Source: Candidatus Saccharimonadales bacterium
Lineage (GTDB): Bacteria; Patescibacteriota; Saccharimonadia; Saccharimonadales; JBGSXW01
Direction: 5' to 3'
Assembly: GCA_041751215.1 (NCBI GenBank)
Contig: JBGSXW010000002.1
Location: 67,123-131,122 of the forward strand
Length of the DNA: 64,000 nt
Below are positions 10,981-39,644 of the stretch, piece by piece. Numbering within the stretch: the first letter of the stretch is position 1; the number at the start of each line of letters is the position of its first letter. The notes beneath the pieces are model-generated. The model saw only the letters and a list, made by a program, of their open reading frames with translations, was not told where the DNA came from and ran no database searches. A program made the translations under genes and the position numbers.

Positions 10981-12392
10981 CTAGATCTCGCCCATACTTG
11001 ACCGTTGTCGGTGTCCCTGACTTCTATGCCGCGGTCTTTAAGTTGCGCTCTTAGCGCATCAGACTTATCCCACTCATTTGATTTTCTGGCGGCTTCTCGC
11101 TGCACGATTAGTTGTTTCTCTTCGCTAGTTATGTCTGGTCGATTACTGATATTAATTCCTAACAACTCGTCTATAAAAGCTAGCGTGCCGTCGGTGTGCG
11201 TGCCTTCTACTCCCGGAACAGGATTCTTAAACATCCAGCTCACAAGTTGATTTAGACTGGCCAGGGCTTCCGGTGTATTGATGTCATTCGCCATGCTGTC
11301 GCTCATTTGTTGTCTGGTTTTCCTAAACAATTCATCAAGTTCATCTGACATAGACTCAGCGCTCGGTTGGTGGCGCAAATCAGACCAATCTCGAATACTG
11401 ACTAGTCTGTTTTGTGCTGCCTCTAAGGCCTCCCAGGTAAAATTAGCCTGACTTCGGTAGTGCGACTGTAACACCATTAGCCTAAAAGCCAGCGGGTCAA
11501 AATACTTAGCTTTAATGTCTTCTAATGTGTAGAAATTATCTAAACTCTTGCTCATTTTTTTGCCGTCAACCATAACATGCTCGTTGTGAAAGAATAATTG
11601 AGCCATGAGCGGATCTTCTTGTCCGGCAGTGCTCTGGGCAATTTCATTTTCGTGGTGAGGAAACTTTAGGTCTACGCCGCCGGTATGAATATCAAACGGC
11701 AAACCCAGGGCTGCCGTGCTCATGGCGGAACACTCGATATGCCAACCCGGCCGTCCAGCTAGTTGCTGGCCGTCAAGTTCAAAGTCCCAGCTTGGTTCGT
11801 CGGGCTTTTTAAGTTTCCACAAAGCAAAGTCGTGCACCGATTCTTTATCGTACTCATCGTTTTGAATCCTTGACTGGCTGGTATTTGAGCTGTCGATCGG
11901 CGTGAGTTGTCCGTAGGTCTTTCCGGAATCAGTATAAGCTTTGATAGAGAAATAAACGCCGTCGTCAGCAATGTAAGCAAAGCCATCGGCGTGAAGTTTT
12001 GCGATTAACTTTTGCATAGATTCGATAGATTCTGTGGCGCGAACAAACTTAATTCCGTCTACGTTGTTGCCAACGCTAATCATGTCGCGCTTAAAGACTT
12101 CTTCGTATTCTTTGGCGAGCTTATCAAGTGCTTCTGTTGGCTCGAGATCAGGATACTTTTCTTTGCTGCGAGCAATCATTTTGTCATCAATATCAGTGAT
12201 GTTCATGACATGCTCAACTTCGTATCCAGCGGACTTAAGCGCACGACAGAGGGTGTCGGCGTAAATAAAGCTGGCAAGGTTACCGATGTGTATATGGTCG
12301 TAAACTGTTGGTCCGCAACTATAAATTCGCACCTTGTTATCAAGTGGTGTGAATTCTGAAACTGATTTTGAAAGGGTGTTATATAGACGCAT
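10977..12392 (-). CDS. cysS: cysteinyl-tRNA synthetase
   Basis: MRLYNTLS..CGPTVYDHIHIGN (HIGH) and KMSKS motifs. Confidence 0.9.
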   Translation of the reverse strand: MRLYNTLSKSVSEFTPLDNKVRIYSCGPTVYDHIHIGNLASFIYADTLCRALKSAGYEVEHVMNITDIDDKMIARSKEKYPDLEPTEALDKLAKEYEEVFKRDMISVGNNVDGIKFVRATESIESMQKLIAKLHADGFAYIADDGVYFSIKAYTDSGKTYGQLTPIDSSNTSQSRIQNDEYDKESVHDFALWKLKKPDEPSWDFELDGQQLAGRPGWHIECSAMSTAALGLPFDIHTGGVDLKFPHHENEIAQSTAGQEDPLMAQLFFHNEHVMVDGKKMSKSLDNFYTLEDIKAKYFDPLAFRLMVLQSHYRSQANFTWEALEAAQNRLVSIRDWSDLRHQPSAESMSDELDELFRKTRQQMSDSMANDINTPEALASLNQLVSWMFKNPVPGVEGTHTDGTLAFIDELLGINISNRPDITSEEKQLIVQREAARKSNEWDKSDALRAQLKDRGIEVRDTDNGQVWARSS

Positions 12393-13389
12393 GCTGTTCG
12401 TTGCTTTTCAGAAGTTCTTTTACTTTATTATGACACTCCAACTTTACACTATCGAGATCTTTGCCCTTTACCTTAAAGCCAGCTGCGTATGGGTGACCGC
12501 CACCCCCAAACGATTCGGCTAGGTCTTTGGCAATTCCAAAACCATGATTGGCCCGGATTTTAGCAGTTATTCTGCCGTCAGGATAAGACTTAAAAGCAGC
12601 CGCAATCTTTACGCCTTCGGTCATTCGCATGTCTTCGAGGACTAGCATCGACGGATTGTATTGCTCGCTATACTTTTCGATCTCTTCCCAGGGGATGTCG
12701 ATGGTTGCCAGGCCGTCATCGTTAAAGTCGATGCGACTAAGTAGCTGGCCCTTGTACTTTGTTAGCTCGGCCGATCGTCGCATCAGTGCCCGGCGCTGCT
12801 CATCTAGAGACGTTAAACTAACGCCCATGTCCACTAGTTCGGCGACGATATGAATCGTTCTTGAAGTGGTGGCTTCAGTAACCAAACCAAGCGAGTCGTA
12901 CATGATCGAACTTGCTAGAAGTGATGCAGCCTCAACACTGATCGGCCAATCTAAAGACCTAGCGATTTCGTATATGGCCTCTCCGGTTGCAACGGCGCTG
13001 TCGTAAAGCAAAGGCAGGTTATCAAAACTTAGAGTGCTCTTAGTGGCGTGGTGATCGATAACAACTACTGGAACTTTCGTTAATATCGGCCGCGCCCCGG
13101 CGCCCATGGCCTTTTCGAGTAAAGATTCACTTGAAGTATCAACAATAATTACTAAATCTGGCTTGGCCGGTAAGGTGTTTGTCACTCTGTCCCAGCCCGG
13201 TAAATGTCGTAAGTGGCGAGGCATCTCGCTGGCGCAGTACATTGTCACCTTCTTGTCCTGCTCTTCGATTAGGTGCTCAAGTGCTAGCGAGCTCGCCAGG
13301 CTGTCGCCGTCTGGGTTTTCTGCCTGAATTACCAACACGTGCGAGCTGGATTTAAGCCAAGCCCCTAGCTGTTTAAGCGAGTCTTCCAT
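12379..13389 (-). CDS. DHH-family phosphoesterase (NrnA-like)
   Basis: DGDSLAS, VIIVDT, IDHH and GGGH motifs. Confidence 0.7.
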   Translation of the reverse strand: MEDSLKQLGAWLKSSSHVLVIQAENPDGDSLASSLALEHLIEEQDKKVTMYCASEMPRHLRHLPGWDRVTNTLPAKPDLVIIVDTSSESLLEKAMGAGARPILTKVPVVVIDHHATKSTLSFDNLPLLYDSAVATGEAIYEIARSLDWPISVEAASLLASSIMYDSLGLVTEATTSRTIHIVAELVDMGVSLTSLDEQRRALMRRSAELTKYKGQLLSRIDFNDDGLATIDIPWEEIEKYSEQYNPSMLVLEDMRMTEGVKIAAAFKSYPDGRITAKIRANHGFGIAKDLAESFGGGGHPYAAGFKVKGKDLDSVKLECHNKVKELLKSNEQHASI

Positions 13390-19968: not shown

Positions 19969-20000
19969 AGTAGTCTCCTTAAATTCTTAATTATGGGAAC

Positions 20001-20154
20001 CTGTTTCCTAAGCCCATTTCAGCCTAAAATCATCCTAGTTGGCTGCAAATAGGCTCAAAACTCGTCAACGTATCTTTTAGATATGCTTTCTCGTTTTACG
20101 CCCTTTTCACTCAACAAGATCTGATTTTACTTCTGAAAGCGACTTAGGAAACAG
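20001..20154 (-). ncRNA. candidate structured RNA / repeat element, copy S2, inserted in the rplJ-rplL spacer (unclassified)
   Basis: 12-nt perfect terminal pairing CUGUUUCCUAAG/CUUAGGAAACAG, reaching 15 bp with one G-U on the minus strand. Homologous to 39115-39273. Confidence 0.5.
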
Positions 20155-20159
20155 ATTCT

Positions 20160-20693
20160 TTATGACTCAAGTTGCTCTTGGCGAGCATTGAGTACGTTAA
20201 CCATTCCACGCAAGTTGCCTGAGAGCACACCGACGAATCCAGATAGTGGAGCAGCGATTGTGCCAACAAGTTGAGCCCGTAGCTGATCCTTGGTAGGAAG
20301 CTCGGCCAGCCTCTTGATTTCATCGGCACTTAGTACGGTGCCGTCGGCTGCGATGGCCCCCACTAGGACGAGGTTCGGGTGTTCCTTGGCGAAGTTTGCC
20401 AGCACTTGAGCTGGAGCTACTTCGTCCTCATTGCCAAAAGCGAACATAAGTTGGCCTTTGAGCAGCGAGGTGTCGGAATCCTTAAGCGCGTCAACCTTAC
20501 TCATGGCCTTCATGAGCAGTCGGTTCTTTGTAACCTTAAGGCTGGTGGCGTTTTCGCGAGCTACTGCGCGGAGTGACTGTAGTTCTTTGACGCTTAACCC
20601 AGTGTATTGGGCTAATACAGTCATTTTTGATGATTCTAGCTTTGCAACCAAATCATCAATAACTGCGGTCTTGTCGTCTCGGCTTAATGCCAT
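20160..20693 (-). CDS. rplJ: 50S ribosomal protein L10
   Basis: 177 aa, upstream of rplL, L10-like sequence. Confidence 0.9.
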   Translation of the reverse strand: MALSRDDKTAVIDDLVAKLESSKMTVLAQYTGLSVKELQSLRAVARENATSLKVTKNRLLMKAMSKVDALKDSDTSLLKGQLMFAFGNEDEVAPAQVLANFAKEHPNLVLVGAIAADGTVLSADEIKRLAELPTKDQLRAQLVGTIAAPLSGFVGVLSGNLRGMVNVLNARQEQLES

Positions 20694-20744
20694 ATGACTA
20701 GTCCTCCTTATTTTAAGTAGTATTGATCTGTTAAGGTGGCCAAT

Positions 20745-20773
20745 TAAAAAATCTTTGGCTTATTTACCAAAGA
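20745..20773 (-). terminator. rho-independent terminator upstream of rplJ
   Basis: TCTTTGG / CCAAAGA stem with an 8-nt loop; U6 tract on the minus strand. Confidence 0.55.
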
Positions 20774-20891
20774 CTTTAATAAAAACAAGTTGTTTTTACC
20801 TCGGTAGCGCTCTTAGTGAACCGGAGTCCAAGCTACTGTCTTTGGCGGATAACTTGTTAACGATAACAGATCGGTCATCAGATTGCAATGC

Positions 20892-22767: not shown

Positions 22768-25110
22768 CTAATTATTGGCGTTAGATTTATCGAGCTGCTT
22801 AAGTTTGTACTGGGTGTACTTTTCAGCCGCAAGACGAGTTAGTTCGTCGTCTTCGCCTTTATTTACAAAGATCATAGAATCAGCAATCAGCGGATGAACT
22901 TCGGCTAAAACATCGTGCATTTCTTTAACTAGCTTTCGGTAACCAGGGTGACCCTGAGGTGAAGTCCTTAGTTCATGAAAATGAAAGGCTTCGCGGGCAT
23001 TGTAGGCTATCTTCCAGCGCATTTTGTGTCCCAGCAAAGTGGCATACTGCGCTTCTAGGTGATAGCCGGCCGACTGCAATTGGCTATAAAGCTCGTAGCT
23101 GATGTCAAAGCAGGATTCAAACAAATCAGATAACCCCGCGTCCTCTACCAGTTTAGGCACTTCGTATCCGTATCGAGGGCTTAGCTCCTGCCAGTTTAAG
23201 TCGTTAACCATTCGATGGCGCTGTAGATCGCGGAAGATGCCGTAGTCGCAAACTAACTCCCATGAGTAATGGGCTTGCTCTAGCGCTCTCCCGGGCTTGT
23301 GCCGACGGTTAAGTCGCTCGCCCATATAGGCCTTAAAAGCATTGAGTTTTTCGTCGTATGTCCAGCTATCAACTTCTTGTTCGATTTGCTCGAGGGGCAG
23401 GCTTGAGTGATCAAACAGCATCTGCGGCAACAGGTCGAGTTCATTCTTAGGGTAGTGGCTAATTAGTTTTACAGCCTTAGTTTCAGGACTAAGACTTTGC
23501 GGCAGCTTGCTGTCGGCGAGCTGTTTCATTGTCTTGTTGGTGTTGGCGCGGTAAGCCACCCAAGCCCCCCCGCGGCCTGGCTTATCGGCTCGCTCTAGAA
23601 ATACCGGAATAATCTTTCGAGCTTCTTTTAGCAGCTGGTCGCCGGTGTCGCGAGCTTCTTGCAGCTCGTCGCTTTGCAGATGCATTATTAAGCTCTCCAG
23701 CGCCTGGCCAGAGGCAAATATACCCACAGTCGCCTTGGTTGCTACCGGTAGGACGTTTCGGATGGCGTCACAAGCCTGAGCCCTTGTTGCGCCCTTCCAG
23801 GCTCCGTCGCGCTCAGCCTCTGGGGTATTTGAGTTGTTGCGAACGTAGTCTGTCAGCTTGCGCACCATGGTTGAGTAGGTGTCAAAAATTTTGTCCATTG
23901 ATTCTTCGTAGACTCGAGCCGTGTCGGCATCGAGGTTTTTAGGCGTGAAGTATTTATAGTTACCTCTAGAATCCTTTTGATCGAAGAATATATAGCGCGT
24001 GGACTGCTCTAGGTAAGCAGCCAGTCGGCCCCACTCGAGCTTTTTGGTCAAGATGTTAGAAGCGTTCTCGACTACGAGATGCAGTCCAACCAGTTGCTGA
24101 ACCGAGTCATCGCCGTAAGCCGTAATGACGCGTTTCAGCAAACCTTCGTCCTTACCTTCGCCCTCGGCGAACTCGTCTAGAAGAGTTACGCGCATGTCAT
24201 CGCCTCGGCGACTCAACCTTGCCATAGCAGCAGCTATAGTGGCTGCCGAGAACTTATCAGTAAAGGCATACACGTCGCCGTCTAGGTCGGTCACGGCGTC
24301 TTTTAGCAGCTCACGGCCATTTGCCGTCATCTTGAACCCGCCGTTGTCGGCTTTTTCTACGTATTTCTTTACGGGCTTGGAGTTATGTTTTTTTTTAGCA
24401 TCGCTTTGGTTGCTCGGTCCTTTTGATTTGCCTTTTGATCGTTTTGGTAGCATTGGCTCCAACCTTTCCCATATCATGTTGCTAACTTTTTGTCGGCTCA
24501 GCTCGTTAGTGTCTTTAACGCCGCTGATCTGAACGAATCCTTTTGGAAATAACTGACACAACTCTTCATATACTTGAATCGAGCGTTTAATGTGGCTGCT
24601 GTCTTCTTGATGAATGTCTTTTTTGTCGTCATCGCGTTGTTGGTACCGCTTTTGGGCAATCTCAAAGGGAACCGTTAGGACTATATTAAGATCGGGCCGC
24701 GGGATGCCGAGGGTTTCAAATTCCAGATTGTCGAGCCAAGTAAAGTAGCCAAGACGTTCCTGCGCATTCTTAAACTTGGTGCCTTGGTGTGCCATGTTTG
24801 ACCCGACGTATCGATCGGCCACCACAACCTTGCCCTCGGCTAGCGCCGTCCGAATGTCCTTGGCGGCGTGGTATCGGTCGAGAGCAAAAAACAAGGACCC
24901 GGTGTAAGGGCTAACATCATCTGCTTGCCCGTACTTTCCGTCTAAATATTGACGGATAAAAAAAGAGGAATCTTCTGAGTAGCGCGGAAAGTCGATGGTA
25001 TAGACTTCTCGACCCTCGGCCCGCAAGCGGTCAATTAACAGCTTAGTCTGCGTCTCTTTGCCAGAGCCGTCTGAGCCTTCGATGACAATGAATATTCCTC
25101 TATCGGACAT
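22768..25110 (-). CDS. fusion protein: N-terminal thymidylate kinase plus C-terminal (tandem) ThyX-like flavin-dependent thymidylate synthase
   Basis: N-terminus FIVIEGSDGSGKETQ..DRY (Tmk). C-terminal ~530 aa carries LQRHRMVNDLNWQELSPRY (ThyX RHR..S.RY-type) plus an upstream degenerate half. Confidence 0.7.
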   Translation of the reverse strand: MSDRGIFIVIEGSDGSGKETQTKLLIDRLRAEGREVYTIDFPRYSEDSSFFIRQYLDGKYGQADDVSPYTGSLFFALDRYHAAKDIRTALAEGKVVVADRYVGSNMAHQGTKFKNAQERLGYFTWLDNLEFETLGIPRPDLNIVLTVPFEIAQKRYQQRDDDKKDIHQEDSSHIKRSIQVYEELCQLFPKGFVQISGVKDTNELSRQKVSNMIWERLEPMLPKRSKGKSKGPSNQSDAKKKHNSKPVKKYVEKADNGGFKMTANGRELLKDAVTDLDGDVYAFTDKFSAATIAAAMARLSRRGDDMRVTLLDEFAEGEGKDEGLLKRVITAYGDDSVQQLVGLHLVVENASNILTKKLEWGRLAAYLEQSTRYIFFDQKDSRGNYKYFTPKNLDADTARVYEESMDKIFDTYSTMVRKLTDYVRNNSNTPEAERDGAWKGATRAQACDAIRNVLPVATKATVGIFASGQALESLIMHLQSDELQEARDTGDQLLKEARKIIPVFLERADKPGRGGAWVAYRANTNKTMKQLADSKLPQSLSPETKAVKLISHYPKNELDLLPQMLFDHSSLPLEQIEQEVDSWTYDEKLNAFKAYMGERLNRRHKPGRALEQAHYSWELVCDYGIFRDLQRHRMVNDLNWQELSPRYGYEVPKLVEDAGLSDLFESCFDISYELYSQLQSAGYHLEAQYATLLGHKMRWKIAYNAREAFHFHELRTSPQGHPGYRKLVKEMHDVLAEVHPLIADSMIFVNKGEDDELTRLAAEKYTQYKLKQLDKSNANN

Positions 25111-36287: not shown

Positions 36288-38245
36288 TGTCGCGGCCAAT
36301 ATCACTCGCAAACGGCAGCATGCTAATCGGCCTAGATCGCTATGGCTTGGTCCATGACTTTTACTATCCGTATGTTGGCATGGAAAATCACGCCAATGCC
36401 CGAGGGATGCGTCACCGCATCGGCGTATACGTCGACGACCAATTTAGCTGGCTCGACGACGGCAGCTGGCAAGTAGATCTATCCCTTGAGGAAGAGGCAA
36501 TGATGGGGCGCGTCAGTGCGGTTAATGATCATCTGGAGCTAGCGTTAGAGTTTACAGACTTTGTTGACTTTAACTACAACGTCTTATGCCGCAACGTTCA
36601 TGTGCTTAACAAGTCAGATAGAAACCGAGAAGTTCGGCTCTTCTTTCATCAAGTTTTTAGAATCTCAGATTCAAACCGCGGCGACACGGCTCTTTACGTA
36701 CCTGAAGATCACTACATCTTGGATTACAAAGGTCGATGCAGCTTTTTGATCTACGCCGAAAAGGCTGATGGCACTCCTTTTGATCAGTACAGTATTGGAA
36801 TCCACGGTATTGAAGGCAAAGAAGGAACTTATCGTGACGCCGAGGACGGAGTGCTAGAAGGCCATCCAGTAGAGCATGGTTCGGTGGACTCTACCGTGCG
36901 CTTAACTTGCAATCTGTCTGCCCTATCTTCCGAAAGAGTTCACTACTGGGTTGCAGCCGCTGGAAGTCATGACGATGCGCTAAAAGTGCACCAACTGCTT
37001 GTAGGAGATGGCTTTACCGATCGGCAAGAAAAAACTCAGCAAGCCTGGTCGGAATGGTTAACAACTGCAAAAAACAACAATCTTAAATTTGAGAACAATA
37101 ACCTAAAGCAACGGTTTAACCAGTCCTTGTTCATCATCAAGTCTCACATCGACCGTCGCGGTTCGATTCTGGCTTCTGGCGATTCTACGATGCTTAACTA
37201 CGCCCGAGACAATTACAGCTACTGTTGGCCGCGCGATGCCGCATATGTGCTATGGCCACTAATCAGACTTGGGTACAGCGAGGAGCCACGGGCTTTCTTT
37301 GAGTTTGCCCGAGATGTGCTAACAGAGCGCGGCGCCCTAATGCATAAGTTTCAGCCAGACAGAGCAGTTGGCAGTACCTGGCACCCACTAGTCCACAAAG
37401 GAAAGCCGGAGCTTGCTATCCAAGAGGACGAAACCGGCATTGTGCTTTTCATGCTGCACCAGTACCTTCAATACTCAAAGGACGAGGACTTTGTTAGGCG
37501 AGTCTATAGCTCGTTGACCCAACCATCGGCTAACTTTTTAGAGAACTTCATTGATAAGTCAACCGGCCTGCCGCATGCCAGCTATGACTTATGGGAGGAG
37601 AAGTTCTTAACTAGCGCCTACACTACGGCTACTGTCTATGCTGGACTAATGGCGGCATCAAAAATGGCCGAGCAATTTGAGTATCCTGATGATTCTGTGC
37701 GTTGGCAAGCTGCCGCCGCCGAACTTAAACGAGCGGCGCAAAAGAAGTTCTTTAATGCCGACAAACAGTATTTTTATAAGGGCTTTTTGCTTGATGCCGA
37801 CGCAAGCAAAGAGCTCGAGTATGACTCTACCATCGACACTTCGAGCCTTTACGGAGCAGTCATGTTTGGACTTTATCCGTTGGACCACGAACATATTAGT
37901 GTGTCACTCAAAACCTTAGAAACCGAGCTGCTCAATTCTGCACCAGTTGGTGGTGTCCCACGCTATGAAAATGATCAATACTGTCGACCTGAGCATGATG
38001 ATCCACACAATGGAAATCCTTGGTTCGTGACAACTTTATGGTTGGCCCAAATTTATATAGAACTAAGACGTCTTGATGACGCTAAGAAATTAATTGACTG
38101 GACGCTCTCGCACACTTTGAGCACTGGCGTTCTCTCGGAGCAGATTAATCCAGAGACCGGCGATCCATTATCAGTCGCTCCGCTAATCTGGAGCAGCGCA
38201 GAGCTGGTAAGTACCATCATTGACATTGCCGAGGAGGAATCATGA
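36287..38245 (+). CDS. GH15-family glycoside hydrolase (glucoamylase/glucodextranase type)
   Basis: YSYCWPRDAAY and the (alpha/alpha)6-typical WEE...TSAYT segments. Confidence 0.7.
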   Translation: MSRPISLANGSMLIGLDRYGLVHDFYYPYVGMENHANARGMRHRIGVYVDDQFSWLDDGSWQVDLSLEEEAMMGRVSAVNDHLELALEFTDFVDFNYNVLCRNVHVLNKSDRNREVRLFFHQVFRISDSNRGDTALYVPEDHYILDYKGRCSFLIYAEKADGTPFDQYSIGIHGIEGKEGTYRDAEDGVLEGHPVEHGSVDSTVRLTCNLSALSSERVHYWVAAAGSHDDALKVHQLLVGDGFTDRQEKTQQAWSEWLTTAKNNNLKFENNNLKQRFNQSLFIIKSHIDRRGSILASGDSTMLNYARDNYSYCWPRDAAYVLWPLIRLGYSEEPRAFFEFARDVLTERGALMHKFQPDRAVGSTWHPLVHKGKPELAIQEDETGIVLFMLHQYLQYSKDEDFVRRVYSSLTQPSANFLENFIDKSTGLPHASYDLWEEKFLTSAYTTATVYAGLMAASKMAEQFEYPDDSVRWQAAAAELKRAAQKKFFNADKQYFYKGFLLDADASKELEYDSTIDTSSLYGAVMFGLYPLDHEHISVSLKTLETELLNSAPVGGVPRYENDQYCRPEHDDPHNGNPWFVTTLWLAQIYIELRRLDDAKKLIDWTLSHTLSTGVLSEQINPETGDPLSVAPLIWSSAELVSTIIDIAEEES

Positions 38246-38847
38246 AGAAACACCTAAAGAAAGCAGTACACGCAGTTAAAAAACCGAACTATGTTTTGCT
38301 CTTTTCGAAGCGCCACGATCTGGTTTTTTTTGGAGACGTCGGCGCTAAAGACGAGATCCAAACACCAAAAGGCTTCACTTATAGTGCCAAGGCTGTAGAC
38401 AGTTCATACGCCCACGGCAATCTTCAAGGATTTGAGCTAAGCGTCCTAATAAGACAAAGCAGTCGCGGTAGCGCCAAGACAACAGTGGTGCGCGTATACC
38501 TTACTAGATCAGAGCTGCCGCACTTTTTAAGTTTTAGTAACGAATTACCATTAGACTTTCAGAATGCTGCTTTATCTTCGGATAGCAATCTGCACGATTA
38601 TCAACTTGTTGGTCTCAATAACTCCAGAAGATTTATCGGCCAGCCCCAAGCAGTCGTGGATTTTAATCAAAGAGTTGCCGTGGCAGTGCCACAGATTATG
38701 AACCTACCACCACAGGTTAGTTTGGAAATTAAAGATAGCGATTTAATACTGGCAGACCATCGGCCACTGAGTAGCGTCAATCAGCTCGAAGAACTAGTTG
38801 GCAGTGCTTTAACATTGGCTTCAGCTCTAGAGGAAGTAAACGAGTAA
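38242..38847 (+). CDS. hypothetical protein (201 aa), last gene of the glucan operon
   Basis: ATGA overlap with the GH15 stop. No family recognised. Confidence 0.5.
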   Translation: MKKHLKKAVHAVKKPNYVLLFSKRHDLVFFGDVGAKDEIQTPKGFTYSAKAVDSSYAHGNLQGFELSVLIRQSSRGSAKTTVVRVYLTRSELPHFLSFSNELPLDFQNAALSSDSNLHDYQLVGLNNSRRFIGQPQAVVDFNQRVAVAVPQIMNLPPQVSLEIKDSDLILADHRPLSSVNQLEELVGSALTLASALEEVNE

Positions 38848-39068: not shown

Positions 39069-39096
39069 ATTTTATCATTAACAGTAGTAATTGCAA
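39069..39096 (-). promoter_or_regulatory. sigma70-like promoter for rpmG
   Basis: Minus strand: TTGCAA (39096-39091), 16 nt, TAAAAT (39074-39069). Confidence 0.45.
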
Positions 39097-39114
39097 CTGG
39101 AAATATGGGCAGTA

Positions 39115-39273
39115 GCCTGTTTGGCAATTCGCTTTTAGTTATAAAATCATGAGTTTTGTGCGAAAACGATGAAGAACGAGGAGGCATCCGCCAGTCGGCG
39201 GACGTTGACGAGTTCTGAATTGTTTGCAGCCAAAAAGAGTGGTTTTAGGATAAAATGGAATTATCAAACAGGC
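39115..39273 (+). ncRNA. candidate structured RNA / repeat element, copy S1 (unclassified)
   Basis: Closing helix GCCUGUUUG/CAAACAGGC. Collinear homology to 20154-20001 with compensatory changes in 3 helices. Confidence 0.5.
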
Positions 39274-39307
39274 TACATTAGTTTACAATGCTCTGGTACT
39301 GTTTTAT

Positions 39308-39382
39308 GCCTCGATAGCTCAGTGGTAGAGCGCATCCATGGTAAGGATGAGGTCGCGAGTTCAATCCTCGCTCGAGGCTCCA
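39308..39382 (+). tRNA. tRNA-Thr (GGU), CCA encoded
   Basis: GCCTCGATAGCTCAGTGGTAGAGCGCATCCATGGTAAGGATGAGGTCGCGAGTTCAATCCTCGCTCGAGGCTCCA. Confidence 0.9.
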
Positions 39383-39473: not shown

Positions 39474-39509
39474 ATGAGGTCGCGAGTTCAATCCTCGCTC
39501 GAGGCTCCA
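39474..39509 (+). repeat. perfect 36-bp duplicate of the tRNA-Thr(GGU) 3' end (att-like)
   Basis: 39474-39509 is identical to 39347-39382 (ATGAGGTCGCGAGTTCAATCCTCGCTCGAGGCTCCA). Confidence 0.9.
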
Positions 39510-39521
39510 GAAGTTCATAAT

Positions 39522-39551
39522 AAAATCACCGCCTCCACAGCGGTGATTTTT
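39522..39551 (+). terminator. rho-independent terminator
   Basis: ATCACCGC / GCGGTGAT 8-bp stem, 7-nt loop, T5. Confidence 0.7.
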
Positions 39552-39644
39552 GTGCAATTGCACACCTCCCTAAACTCAACCCGACCCTACTCCAGTCCTT
39601 TCAGATGATCTCGCATGACATCCGAAGTGGTGGACTCGTAGTTC

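Follow-up and report, generated by a model that had tools for sequence, protein, structure and literature searches.

A rod-forming insertion between rplJ and rplL of a Saccharibacteria genome is very probably a copy of a MITE-like palindromic repeat

The subject of this study is a rod-forming repeat that separates the genes for ribosomal proteins L10 and L7/L12 in a stretch of 64,000 nucleotides (nt) from a Candidatus Saccharimonadales bacterium (GenBank assembly GCA_041751215.1, contig JBGSXW010000002.1, positions 67,123 to 131,122), hereafter the window. On the minus strand of the window, rplJ (L10; positions 20160 to 20693), recognized as an open reading frame (ORF) with homologues carrying Pfam PF00466, lies directly upstream of the repeat, designated copy 1 (19997 to 20158, minus strand), and rplL (L7/L12; 19561 to 19968, minus strand), an ORF matched by a neighbor gene with Ribosomal_L12 domains in relatives, lies directly downstream. 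The ORF coordinates bear out a spacer of 191 nt, whose minus-strand sequence reads GAAUCUGUUUCCUAAG ... CUUAGGAAACAGGUUC. A preliminary description of this DNA had placed within the spacer an inserted block of 154 nt, with ends pairing perfectly over 12 nt (20154 to 20143 with 20012 to 20001) in a 15-bp closing helix that includes one U·G pair. The perfect end pairing, the U·G pair and the insertion itself are present, but the pairing extends further: four more pairs reach G20158-C19997, so that the closing helix measures 16 bp and the element 162 nt, with the ends GAATCTGTTTCC...GGAAACAGGTTC. Copy 1 starts one base past the rplJ stop codon, and the rplL Shine-Dalgarno (SD) sequence AAGGAG (19975 to 19980) lies outside the rod, 16 nt beyond its foot. 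Deleting the block restores, as had been proposed, a normal spacer with an intact SD, the remainder being ~30 nt rather than 37 nt.

On the minus (transcribed) strand, the 154-nt block (20001 to 20154) folds into an unbranched rod of -62.3 kcal/mol (z = -8.72), a stability equaled by none of 200 shuffled sequences, whereas the plus strand reaches -47.5 kcal/mol only. Both nested helices noted previously (UUUCAG/CUGAAA and UAAAAUCA/UGAUUUUA) are part of the minimum-energy fold. A covariance model (R1) scores copy 1 at 130.3 bits in the sense direction and 48.4 bits in the antisense direction. The conserved core, delimited from our alignment A2 (described below) and its conserved columns with coordinates counted from the sequence (20041 to 20112, minus strand), runs in the order GAGUGAAAA, ACGAGAAA, apical hairpin, GUUGACGAGUU.UGA and UUUGCAGCC. 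A scan of the spacer predicted neither a promoter nor a terminator, so copy 1 should be co-transcribed with rplJ and rplL. Just upstream of rplJ, positions 20737 to 20863 (minus strand) match the L10 leader family RF00557 with 47.1 bits (gathering score, 44); rplJ thus keeps its normal autoregulatory leader, which is distinct from the inserted element.

We scored R1 against every position of the window and detected copies 1 and 2 only. Copy 2 (39113 to 39275, plus strand; 163 nt; R1, 134.1 bits sense and 42.3 bits antisense) corresponds to the second, diverged copy reported previously at 39115 to 39273; it can be aligned with copy 1 strand for strand, and the two are ~70% identical. It has TA as its first and last two bases (TA|GCCTGTTTGG...CAAACAGGC|TA), and its core spans 39158 to 39231 (plus strand; conserved columns, coordinates counted from the sequence). 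The segment 39115 to 39273 folds with -68.0 kcal/mol on the sense strand versus -46.0 kcal/mol on the opposite strand. To the left of copy 2 lies rpmG (L33; 38850 to 39038, minus strand; PF00471), for which a consensus scan predicted a promoter at 39096 to 39069 (minus strand), and to the right lies tRNA-Thr(GGT) (39308 to 39382, plus strand). The same type of scan predicted a sigma-70-type promoter for the tRNA (39261 to 39289, plus strand), the -35 box TTATCA (39261 to 39266) falling within copy 2 at its right end and the -10 box TACAAT (39284 to 39289) in the flank; copy 2 may have created or replaced part of this putative promoter. The sole promoter-like site in the sense direction at either window copy is found inside the left arm of copy 2 (39121 to 39150). 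As it stands between two divergent predicted promoters, copy 2 may lack sense transcription.

Two further observations concern the surroundings of copy 2. The 3' half of tRNA-Thr(GGT) (36 nt, 39347 to 39382) is repeated exactly at 39474 to 39509, 91 nt downstream of the tRNA, and is followed by a terminator-like hairpin at ~39521 to 39553; the repeat has the appearance of a scar left when an element integrated, in the past, at the 3' end of the tRNA. Adjoining rpmG, a 201-amino-acid (aa) ORF (38242 to 38847, plus strand) is an orphan that matched only itself among 5.8 billion clustered proteins (E ≤ 1e-10), and relatives carry an unannotated 212-aa ORF at the same position.

Homologues outside the window were sought by means of two independent patterns. 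An exact pattern built from two blocks conserved between the window copies and run against one genome per species returned 23 matching stretches, among which blastn against the window copies confirmed as true homologues those in two Saccharibacteria metagenome-assembled genomes (MAGs; loci L004, L009+L005 and L023), while a shorter match in a Paceibacterota MAG (L018) was confirmed by the covariance model. The other stretches, having no similarity outside the pattern, were set aside as chance matches. The second pattern, run against metagenome contigs, returned 46 loci, ~34 of them genuine. Altogether, these scans of public genomes and metagenomes yielded ~26 distinct homologous loci, mostly from Saccharibacteria; phage, plasmid, viral-contig and E. 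coli collections contained no match to the element.

One organism, sampled by the metagenomes Ga0080064, Ga0209726 and JGI1357J11328, harbors at least 12 near-identical copies of one subfamily at different loci. More specifically, these copies have 12 distinct left and 12 distinct right flanks with TA at all 24 ends; the base before TA is C in 9 of 12 and the base after it is G in 7 of 12, giving the target consensus C-TA-G. With the model, we found in this organism a further subfamily, more diverged than the first, that has the same length and different termini (TA followed by GGACTTTCGCAC...), and across species the termini are semi-conserved (TA-G(A/G)(A/G)CC...). Three copies lie on a single 3.9-kb contig (L061), and many metagenomic copies sit at contig ends, as expected of a repeat that breaks assembly. 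Among the non-redundant copies, 17 of 18 measure 159 to 166 nt, the remaining one (L023) being truncated to 139 nt. The GC content of the element is 40 to 42% versus ~47% in its surroundings, and no ORF is conserved: short ORFs differ between copies in frame, start codon and length, and a candidate mini-ORF, seen in L004 and copy 2 and encoding an MKNEE... peptide, was dismissed for this reason.

Several copies carry additional features. A 41-nt GC-rich stem-loop occupies the 5' arm beside the conserved GAGC in L027 (3041 to 3246), L047 (1489 to 1694) and L056 (13262 to 13382), and the Paceibacterota copy (~1508 to 1729) has a 47-nt perfect hairpin in its 3' arm; such nested hairpins may have arisen by secondary insertion or by expansion. 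The apical hairpin comes in two types, one GC-rich (CCGCCAG-CUGGCGG) and one AU-rich (GCAUAWC...GWUACGU), both of which recur across species in our comparison of window copies 1 and 2 with L028/L061, L068 and L039. Each of the window copies carries one of them, and both occur in the multi-copy organism, so either both lineages are old or the hairpin sequence matters. Finally, contigs from different samples (L052, L061, L027 and L053) show the flank combinations A-element-B, A-element-C, X-element-B and X-element-C, a pattern that points either to recombination among copies or to chimeras assembled across the repeat.

All copies with assessable flanks are intergenic, except for one within a 23S rRNA gene, and the gaps to neighboring genes are often 0 to 30 nt. 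Where both neighbors lie on one strand, ~9 to 10 copies run in the same direction as these genes and 7 in the opposite direction. Copy 1 is in sense orientation between rplJ and rplL; the L023 copy, located between dnaK and dnaJ, is antisense and abuts the dnaJ ribosome-binding site. At L056, inverted copies (11800 to 11963, minus strand; 13262 to 13382, plus strand) bracket two ORFs (12112 to 12564 and 12606 to 13238) that encode type IV pilin-like proteins with the N_methyl motif rather than transposases. A paralogous pilin pair adjoins copies at L053, and the bracketing of pilin genes could represent a composite structure or a hotspot close to genes for surface proteins. The 23S copy (~161 nt, sense) was recovered from three contigs (L033, 103 to 265, plus strand; L045, 7030 to 7192, plus strand; L051, 1756 to 1918, minus strand) and its site in domain III has UCUAAG on one side and AAUUACAUUCGAAACCGUACC on the other. 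This 23S gene also holds a group I intron (RF00028; L033, 869 to 1048) and two more unaligned, hairpin-rich insertions (~400 to 556 and 679 to 828). Across the window, the GC skew was too flat for the direction of replication to be inferred.

Relatives provide sites that lack the element. The two closest L10 homologues with contigs (L070 and L071; 75% and 69% identity) share with the window the gene order Tmk-ThyX, L10, L12, 170-aa ORF, DnaX and DnaB; their rplJ-rplL spacers measure 29 and 26 nt, compared with ~30 nt for the window spacer minus the element, and R1 found no match in them. Similarly, the element is absent upstream of rpmG in nine loci of relatives (L072 to L080; L33 identity, 85 to 89%). 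In these relatives, tRNA-Thr(GGT) is co-directional with rpmG; its inverted orientation in the window means that this region has been rearranged. Judged from these sequence comparisons, both window copies are lineage-specific insertions. The first gene of the shared order is in the window a 780-aa ORF (22768 to 25110, minus strand) encoding a thymidylate kinase-ThyX (Thy1) fusion, and fusions of the same kind (777 and 756 aa; PF02223 plus PF02511) occur in relatives.

To describe the structure shared by the family, we aligned 18 non-redundant copies (alignment A2). Their consensus is a single rod of 52 pairs in which 91.3% of cells are paired and 39 of the 52 pairs show compensatory (double) changes. 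The covariation score was 0.568, compared with 0.194 for column shuffles and at most 0.139 when pairing partners were slid. The outer helix, i.e., the terminal inverted repeats (TIRs), comprises 18 aligned pairs and is 90.6% paired. As the element is both palindromic and mobile, covariation alone is no proof of RNA function. The rod falls into three zones: a basal third including the termini, in which sequence is free to vary while pairing is kept; a middle third that differs from subfamily to subfamily; and an apical region of 72 to 74 nt whose sequence is strongly conserved and common to subfamilies with differing termini. The consensus of this core reads GAGCGAAAA-yyr-UGAAr-nAC-GAGGAr-[variable hairpin]-yUGAC-GAGU-nn-UGAAy-rr-UUUGCAGCC.

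An internal loop of ~14x15 nt had been described for copy 1. This loop is an artefact of folding a single sequence, as the region is mostly paired in the 18 homologues, with conserved G·A oppositions and small loops, the largest loop of the comparative central region being 2 x 3 nt. The seemingly unpaired core residues oppose each other as G·A or A·G at eight column pairs conserved in 14 to 18 of the 18 sequences: 55·122, 56·120, 71·104, 72·103 and 75·100 in all 18, 74·101 in 17, 65·110 in 16 and 64·111 in 14. Column 121, between pairs 55·122 and 56·120, holds a pyrimidine that bulges out. Read on the sense strand, the core thus forms a helix without interruption that includes four tandem G·A sites; two of these have the context 5'-CGAG-3'/5'-CGAG-3', which thermodynamically favors sheared G·A pairs. 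On the opposite strand the same sites become C·U or U·C, and this accounts for most of the strand asymmetry: the sense strand is more stable in 22 of 22 distinct copies, by 9 to 29 kcal/mol with RNA parameters and by 0.5 to 12 kcal/mol with DNA parameters. In the basal arms, G·U outnumbers A·C only modestly (58 versus 35, p = 0.02), in copies that are not independent of one another.

We conclude that the block between rplJ and rplL is very probably a copy of a non-autonomous palindromic repeat of ~163 bp that resembles a MITE (miniature inverted-repeat transposable element) and occurs in Candidatus Saccharibacteria and in at least one other genome bin of the candidate phyla radiation (CPR). 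It is a discrete, non-coding insertion that belongs to a dispersed family with TA-flanked inverted termini, mixed orientation and empty sites in relatives. Of the two alternatives offered in the preliminary description, these features uphold the mobile insert and not the noncoding RNA processed from the L10-L12 mRNA. They also match the published definition of bacterial MITEs, which are <200 bp in length, carry TIRs, end in 5'-TA-3', are A+T-rich and form RNA hairpins that affect neighboring mRNAs; the definition further includes target-site duplications (PMC2229807). A plain MITE had been pictured as having many copies in random orientation, target-site duplications and no covariation; the copies, their mixed orientation and TA-flanked ends that may represent such duplications are found, but covariation is strong (0.568).

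Under this interpretation, a transposase acting in trans would move the element and insert it at TA with a preference for C-TA-G. Candidate enzymes are of the insertion sequence (IS) types IS630/Tc1-mariner or IS5/IS427; both groups duplicate TA. Copy 1 would have landed just past the rplJ stop codon and would now be co-transcribed with rplJ and rplL, its predicted rod (about -62 kcal/mol) leaving the rplL ribosome-binding site free in the mRNA. By analogy with Correia and enterobacterial repetitive intergenic consensus (ERIC) elements, the co-transcribed rod is plausibly an RNase III substrate or an mRNA-stability element, and it could uncouple the rplJ and rplL cistrons. Copy 2 would have landed between the divergent promoters of rpmG and tRNA-Thr, where it may supply the -35 box of the tRNA promoter. 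Judging from its sequence conservation, the core would be required in cis, in a single-stranded folded form, most probably for propagation of the element; on this most economical reading of the conserved interior, only copies with an intact core would propagate.

Several points weigh against this interpretation. First, TA is not directly adjacent to the ends of copy 1, and although it is found at copy 2 and at all 12 left and all 12 right ends of the multi-copy subfamily, TA is itself palindromic and could be part of the inverted repeat. Second, ~280 kb of related loci contained neither an autonomous IS with matching termini nor a multi-copy transposase gene; no additional pair of TIRs was found around an ORF, nor any ORF cluster with multiple copies. 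Third, the window holds two diverged copies only (~70% identical), which leaves activity in this genome putative. Fourth, a simple MITE model leaves unexplained why the strand-specific core is more conserved than the termini, given that in ordinary MITEs moved by DDE transposases it is the termini that are conserved, not the interior. This last contrast is itself somewhat inflated, because our search patterns fixed several columns (GAAAA, ACGAG, TGACGAGT and TGA, or GTTGACGAGTT and TTTGCAGCC), so that the invariance of the core is in part ascertainment. Nevertheless, columns left free by the patterns are conserved as well (64 to 65 and 74 to 75 in all sequences; 120 to 122 in the sequences found with the metagenome pattern), and the model-found subfamily with other termini retains, as read from its sequence, both the GAGCGAAA/UUGCAGCC loop and G·A pairs of the CGAG type.

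The conserved core gives some room to a rather unlikely alternative, in which the mobile element carries a functional RNA module whose core is selected for its usefulness, to the host or to the element, once transcribed. Such a module might serve as a protein-binding platform, an RNase processing site or a stabilizer of mRNA or rRNA, and copy 1 would possibly be a cis-regulator of the L10/L12 ratio. This alternative overlaps with the MITE-like interpretation and differs from it solely in where selection acts. It would account for the retention of the core across subfamilies with different termini and for the four tandem G·A sites, including the 5'-CGAG-3'/5'-CGAG-3' ones, that make a continuous helix on one strand only. 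The tolerance of a sense copy within an essential 23S rRNA gene, the sense orientation of copy 1 in an rplJ-rplL spacer with no predicted promoter or terminator, and the basal-arm G·U excess (with the same caveat of non-independent copies) point in the same direction; a transcribed core might render insertions in operons and rRNA harmless. Set against these points, ~7 of the 17 copies whose flanks are informative lie antisense to both flanking genes and yet have the same strand asymmetry, and copy 2, between its divergent predicted promoters, may not be transcribed in sense at all. Moreover, near-identical young copies inherit the sequence of their master copy, so that conservation need not reflect selection at each site; the asymmetry kept in anti-oriented copies fits master-copy inheritance or a role at the DNA level better than it fits per-site selection.

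A role at the DNA level leads to a second alternative, which we consider improbable: that the hairpin moves as single-stranded DNA, its sense fold being recognized by a structure-specific enzyme, for example of the HUH/Y1 type (known from IS200/IS605-derived elements and from REPIN/RAYT systems), with the G·A-rich core as the recognition structure. In its favor, the strand asymmetry is intrinsic to the element and independent of the direction of host transcription, the interior is better conserved than the ends, and the asymmetry persists, albeit weaker, under DNA energy parameters. However, inverted repeats ending in TA and a C-TA-G target are the hallmark of DDE (cut-and-paste) transposition, not of HUH enzymes; HUH elements (IS200/IS605) insert beside a specific tetra- or pentanucleotide and make no duplication. 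No candidate HUH transposase gene, for instance for a RAYT (REP-associated tyrosine transposase) or a TnpA (Y1), was seen among the handful of copy-adjacent ORFs annotated against Pfam. REPINs do provide a precedent for hairpin-forming miniature mobile DNA (PMC3116915).

It is very improbable that the family consists of paralogous stand-alone small RNA (sRNA) genes, 6S-like or otherwise regulatory, with copy 1 processed from the rplJ-rplL transcript: strong covariation, a strand-specific fold, conserved internal loops and a length of ~160 nt, within the size range of 6S RNA, would suit such genes, but one organism has at least 12 near-identical TA-flanked copies, orientation is mixed with one copy inside a 23S rRNA gene, the closest relatives have neither window copy, the consensus structure shows no large central bubble, its center being paired or G·A, and no terminator was predicted at either window copy and no promoter upstream of either, copy 2 being placed between two divergent predicted ones. 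The 6S resemblance raised in the preliminary description is accordingly abandoned. Searches with Rfam 15, as had been suggested with 6S RNA (RF00013) in mind, gave no 6S match and no other relevant match in the whole window (gathering threshold), in both copies (E ≤ 10) or in 17 related loci, the best chance matches being to a CRISPR repeat and an sRNA (E ~0.6 to 0.9).

Other identities were considered by eye and rejected. A hammerhead does not fit, as the C3 position of the CUGANGA box varies (U/C/G) and conservation of GAAA is lacking; for want of a 3-nt bulge, hairpin-ribozyme loops and C/D-box K-turns do not fit either; and the element has only short strings in common with signal recognition particle RNA domain IV, the 23S GTPase center and sarcin-ricin motifs. 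An internal sigma-70 promoter on the core TTGACG was likewise dismissed, there being no acceptable -10 box 16 to 18 nt downstream and no hit in the scan of copy 1.

Though rather unlikely, the conserved, strand-specific core could be a functional single-stranded nucleic-acid module on a transposon chassis, spread around CPR genomes; in form it would be a helix that runs straight through four tandem sheared G·A pairs, with one A and one pyrimidine bulged. Two versions can be envisaged. In the first, the core would be an RNA cassette that some specific protein binds or cuts, i.e., a portable control of mRNA or rRNA processing; if this were true, regulator-poor CPR bacteria could use it to set the L10:L12 ratio, dnaK-dnaJ expression and 23S maturation. 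In the second, it would be the structure recognized in a mechanism of transposition not yet described, one in which TA-flanked inverted ends go together with an intermediate that is single-stranded and folded. The G·A-rich core on one strand hints at a function of folded RNA or of single-stranded DNA.

The odd rplJ-rplL spacer of 191 nt is explained by a transposon insertion, which also removes a false 6S-like lead. In the literature we found no MITEs, 6S RNA or IS630-type repeats described for Saccharibacteria or CPR bacteria, and these groups go unmentioned in the searched text of two surveys of prokaryotic MITEs; the family appears to be new, its kind (MITE) being already known. Saccharibacteria and other CPR genomes measure ~1 Mb and have very short spacers, and clean insertion between essential co-transcribed genes (rplJ/rplL and dnaK/dnaJ) and into 23S rRNA bears on how minimal genomes tolerate mobile DNA. 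The repeat also helps to explain breaks in CPR assemblies and is relevant to CPR annotation, and R1 can be used for a census of the family.

Among known systems, Correia and ERIC elements are the closest in kind; the more distant comparisons are given first. 6S RNA (RF00013 and relatives) is like the element in length (~160 to 190 nt), in having ends that pair as a closing stem and in its rod shape, but the element, without a model match or a large central bubble, is a multi-copy mobile repeat with no dedicated promoter or terminator. Intervening sequences (IVSs) are extended 23S stem-loops that are removed by RNase III; the likeness applies to the 23S copy only, a sense stem-loop of ~161 nt, whereas at the other ~25 loci the neighbors are protein-coding or tRNA genes. 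For rRNA genes of CPR bacteria, insertions are said to have been well documented by Brown et al. in 2015.

The pneumococcal RUP, likewise small and non-coding, bears TIRs, inserts at TA and is thought to be mobilized in trans by an IS630-family transposase (PMC2229807). Its partner, IS630-Spn1, is known via matching TIRs, whereas no partner for the element was found in the related loci. ERIC/IRU elements of Enterobacteriaceae and Vibrionaceae are, like the element, imperfect palindromes (ERIC, ~127 bp) found between genes and within operons in both orientations. They differ from it in size and host range, and a blastn search against 5,426 E. coli genomes, which bear ERIC, gave no similarity to the element. 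The central inverted repeat is reportedly the most conserved part of ERIC, as Hulton et al. are said to have noted in 1991; to our knowledge, a G·A-rich helix on one strand has not been described for it. When co-transcribed, ERIC has orientation-dependent effects on mRNA stability, and it is regarded as a MITE (PMC2229807, PMC10969869); it also exposes an RNase E site (PMC10969869).

Correia elements (CREE/NEMIS, Neisseria) share with the element a full-length palindrome (~100 to 160 bp) with TA ends and dozens of intergenic copies in either orientation. They reside in Betaproteobacteria rather than in CPR bacteria, and no sequence relationship between the two is apparent; the conserved parts of Correia are its 26-bp TIRs and an IHF site, whereas here a central core of 72 to 74 nt, with tandem G·A pairs on one strand, is conserved and the termini vary by subfamily. 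Co-transcribed Correia elements form a long hairpin that RNase III cuts at the TIRs (PMC10969869, PMC2229807). They can also supply promoter elements to neighboring genes, just as copy 2 may supply the predicted -35 box of tRNA-Thr(GGT).

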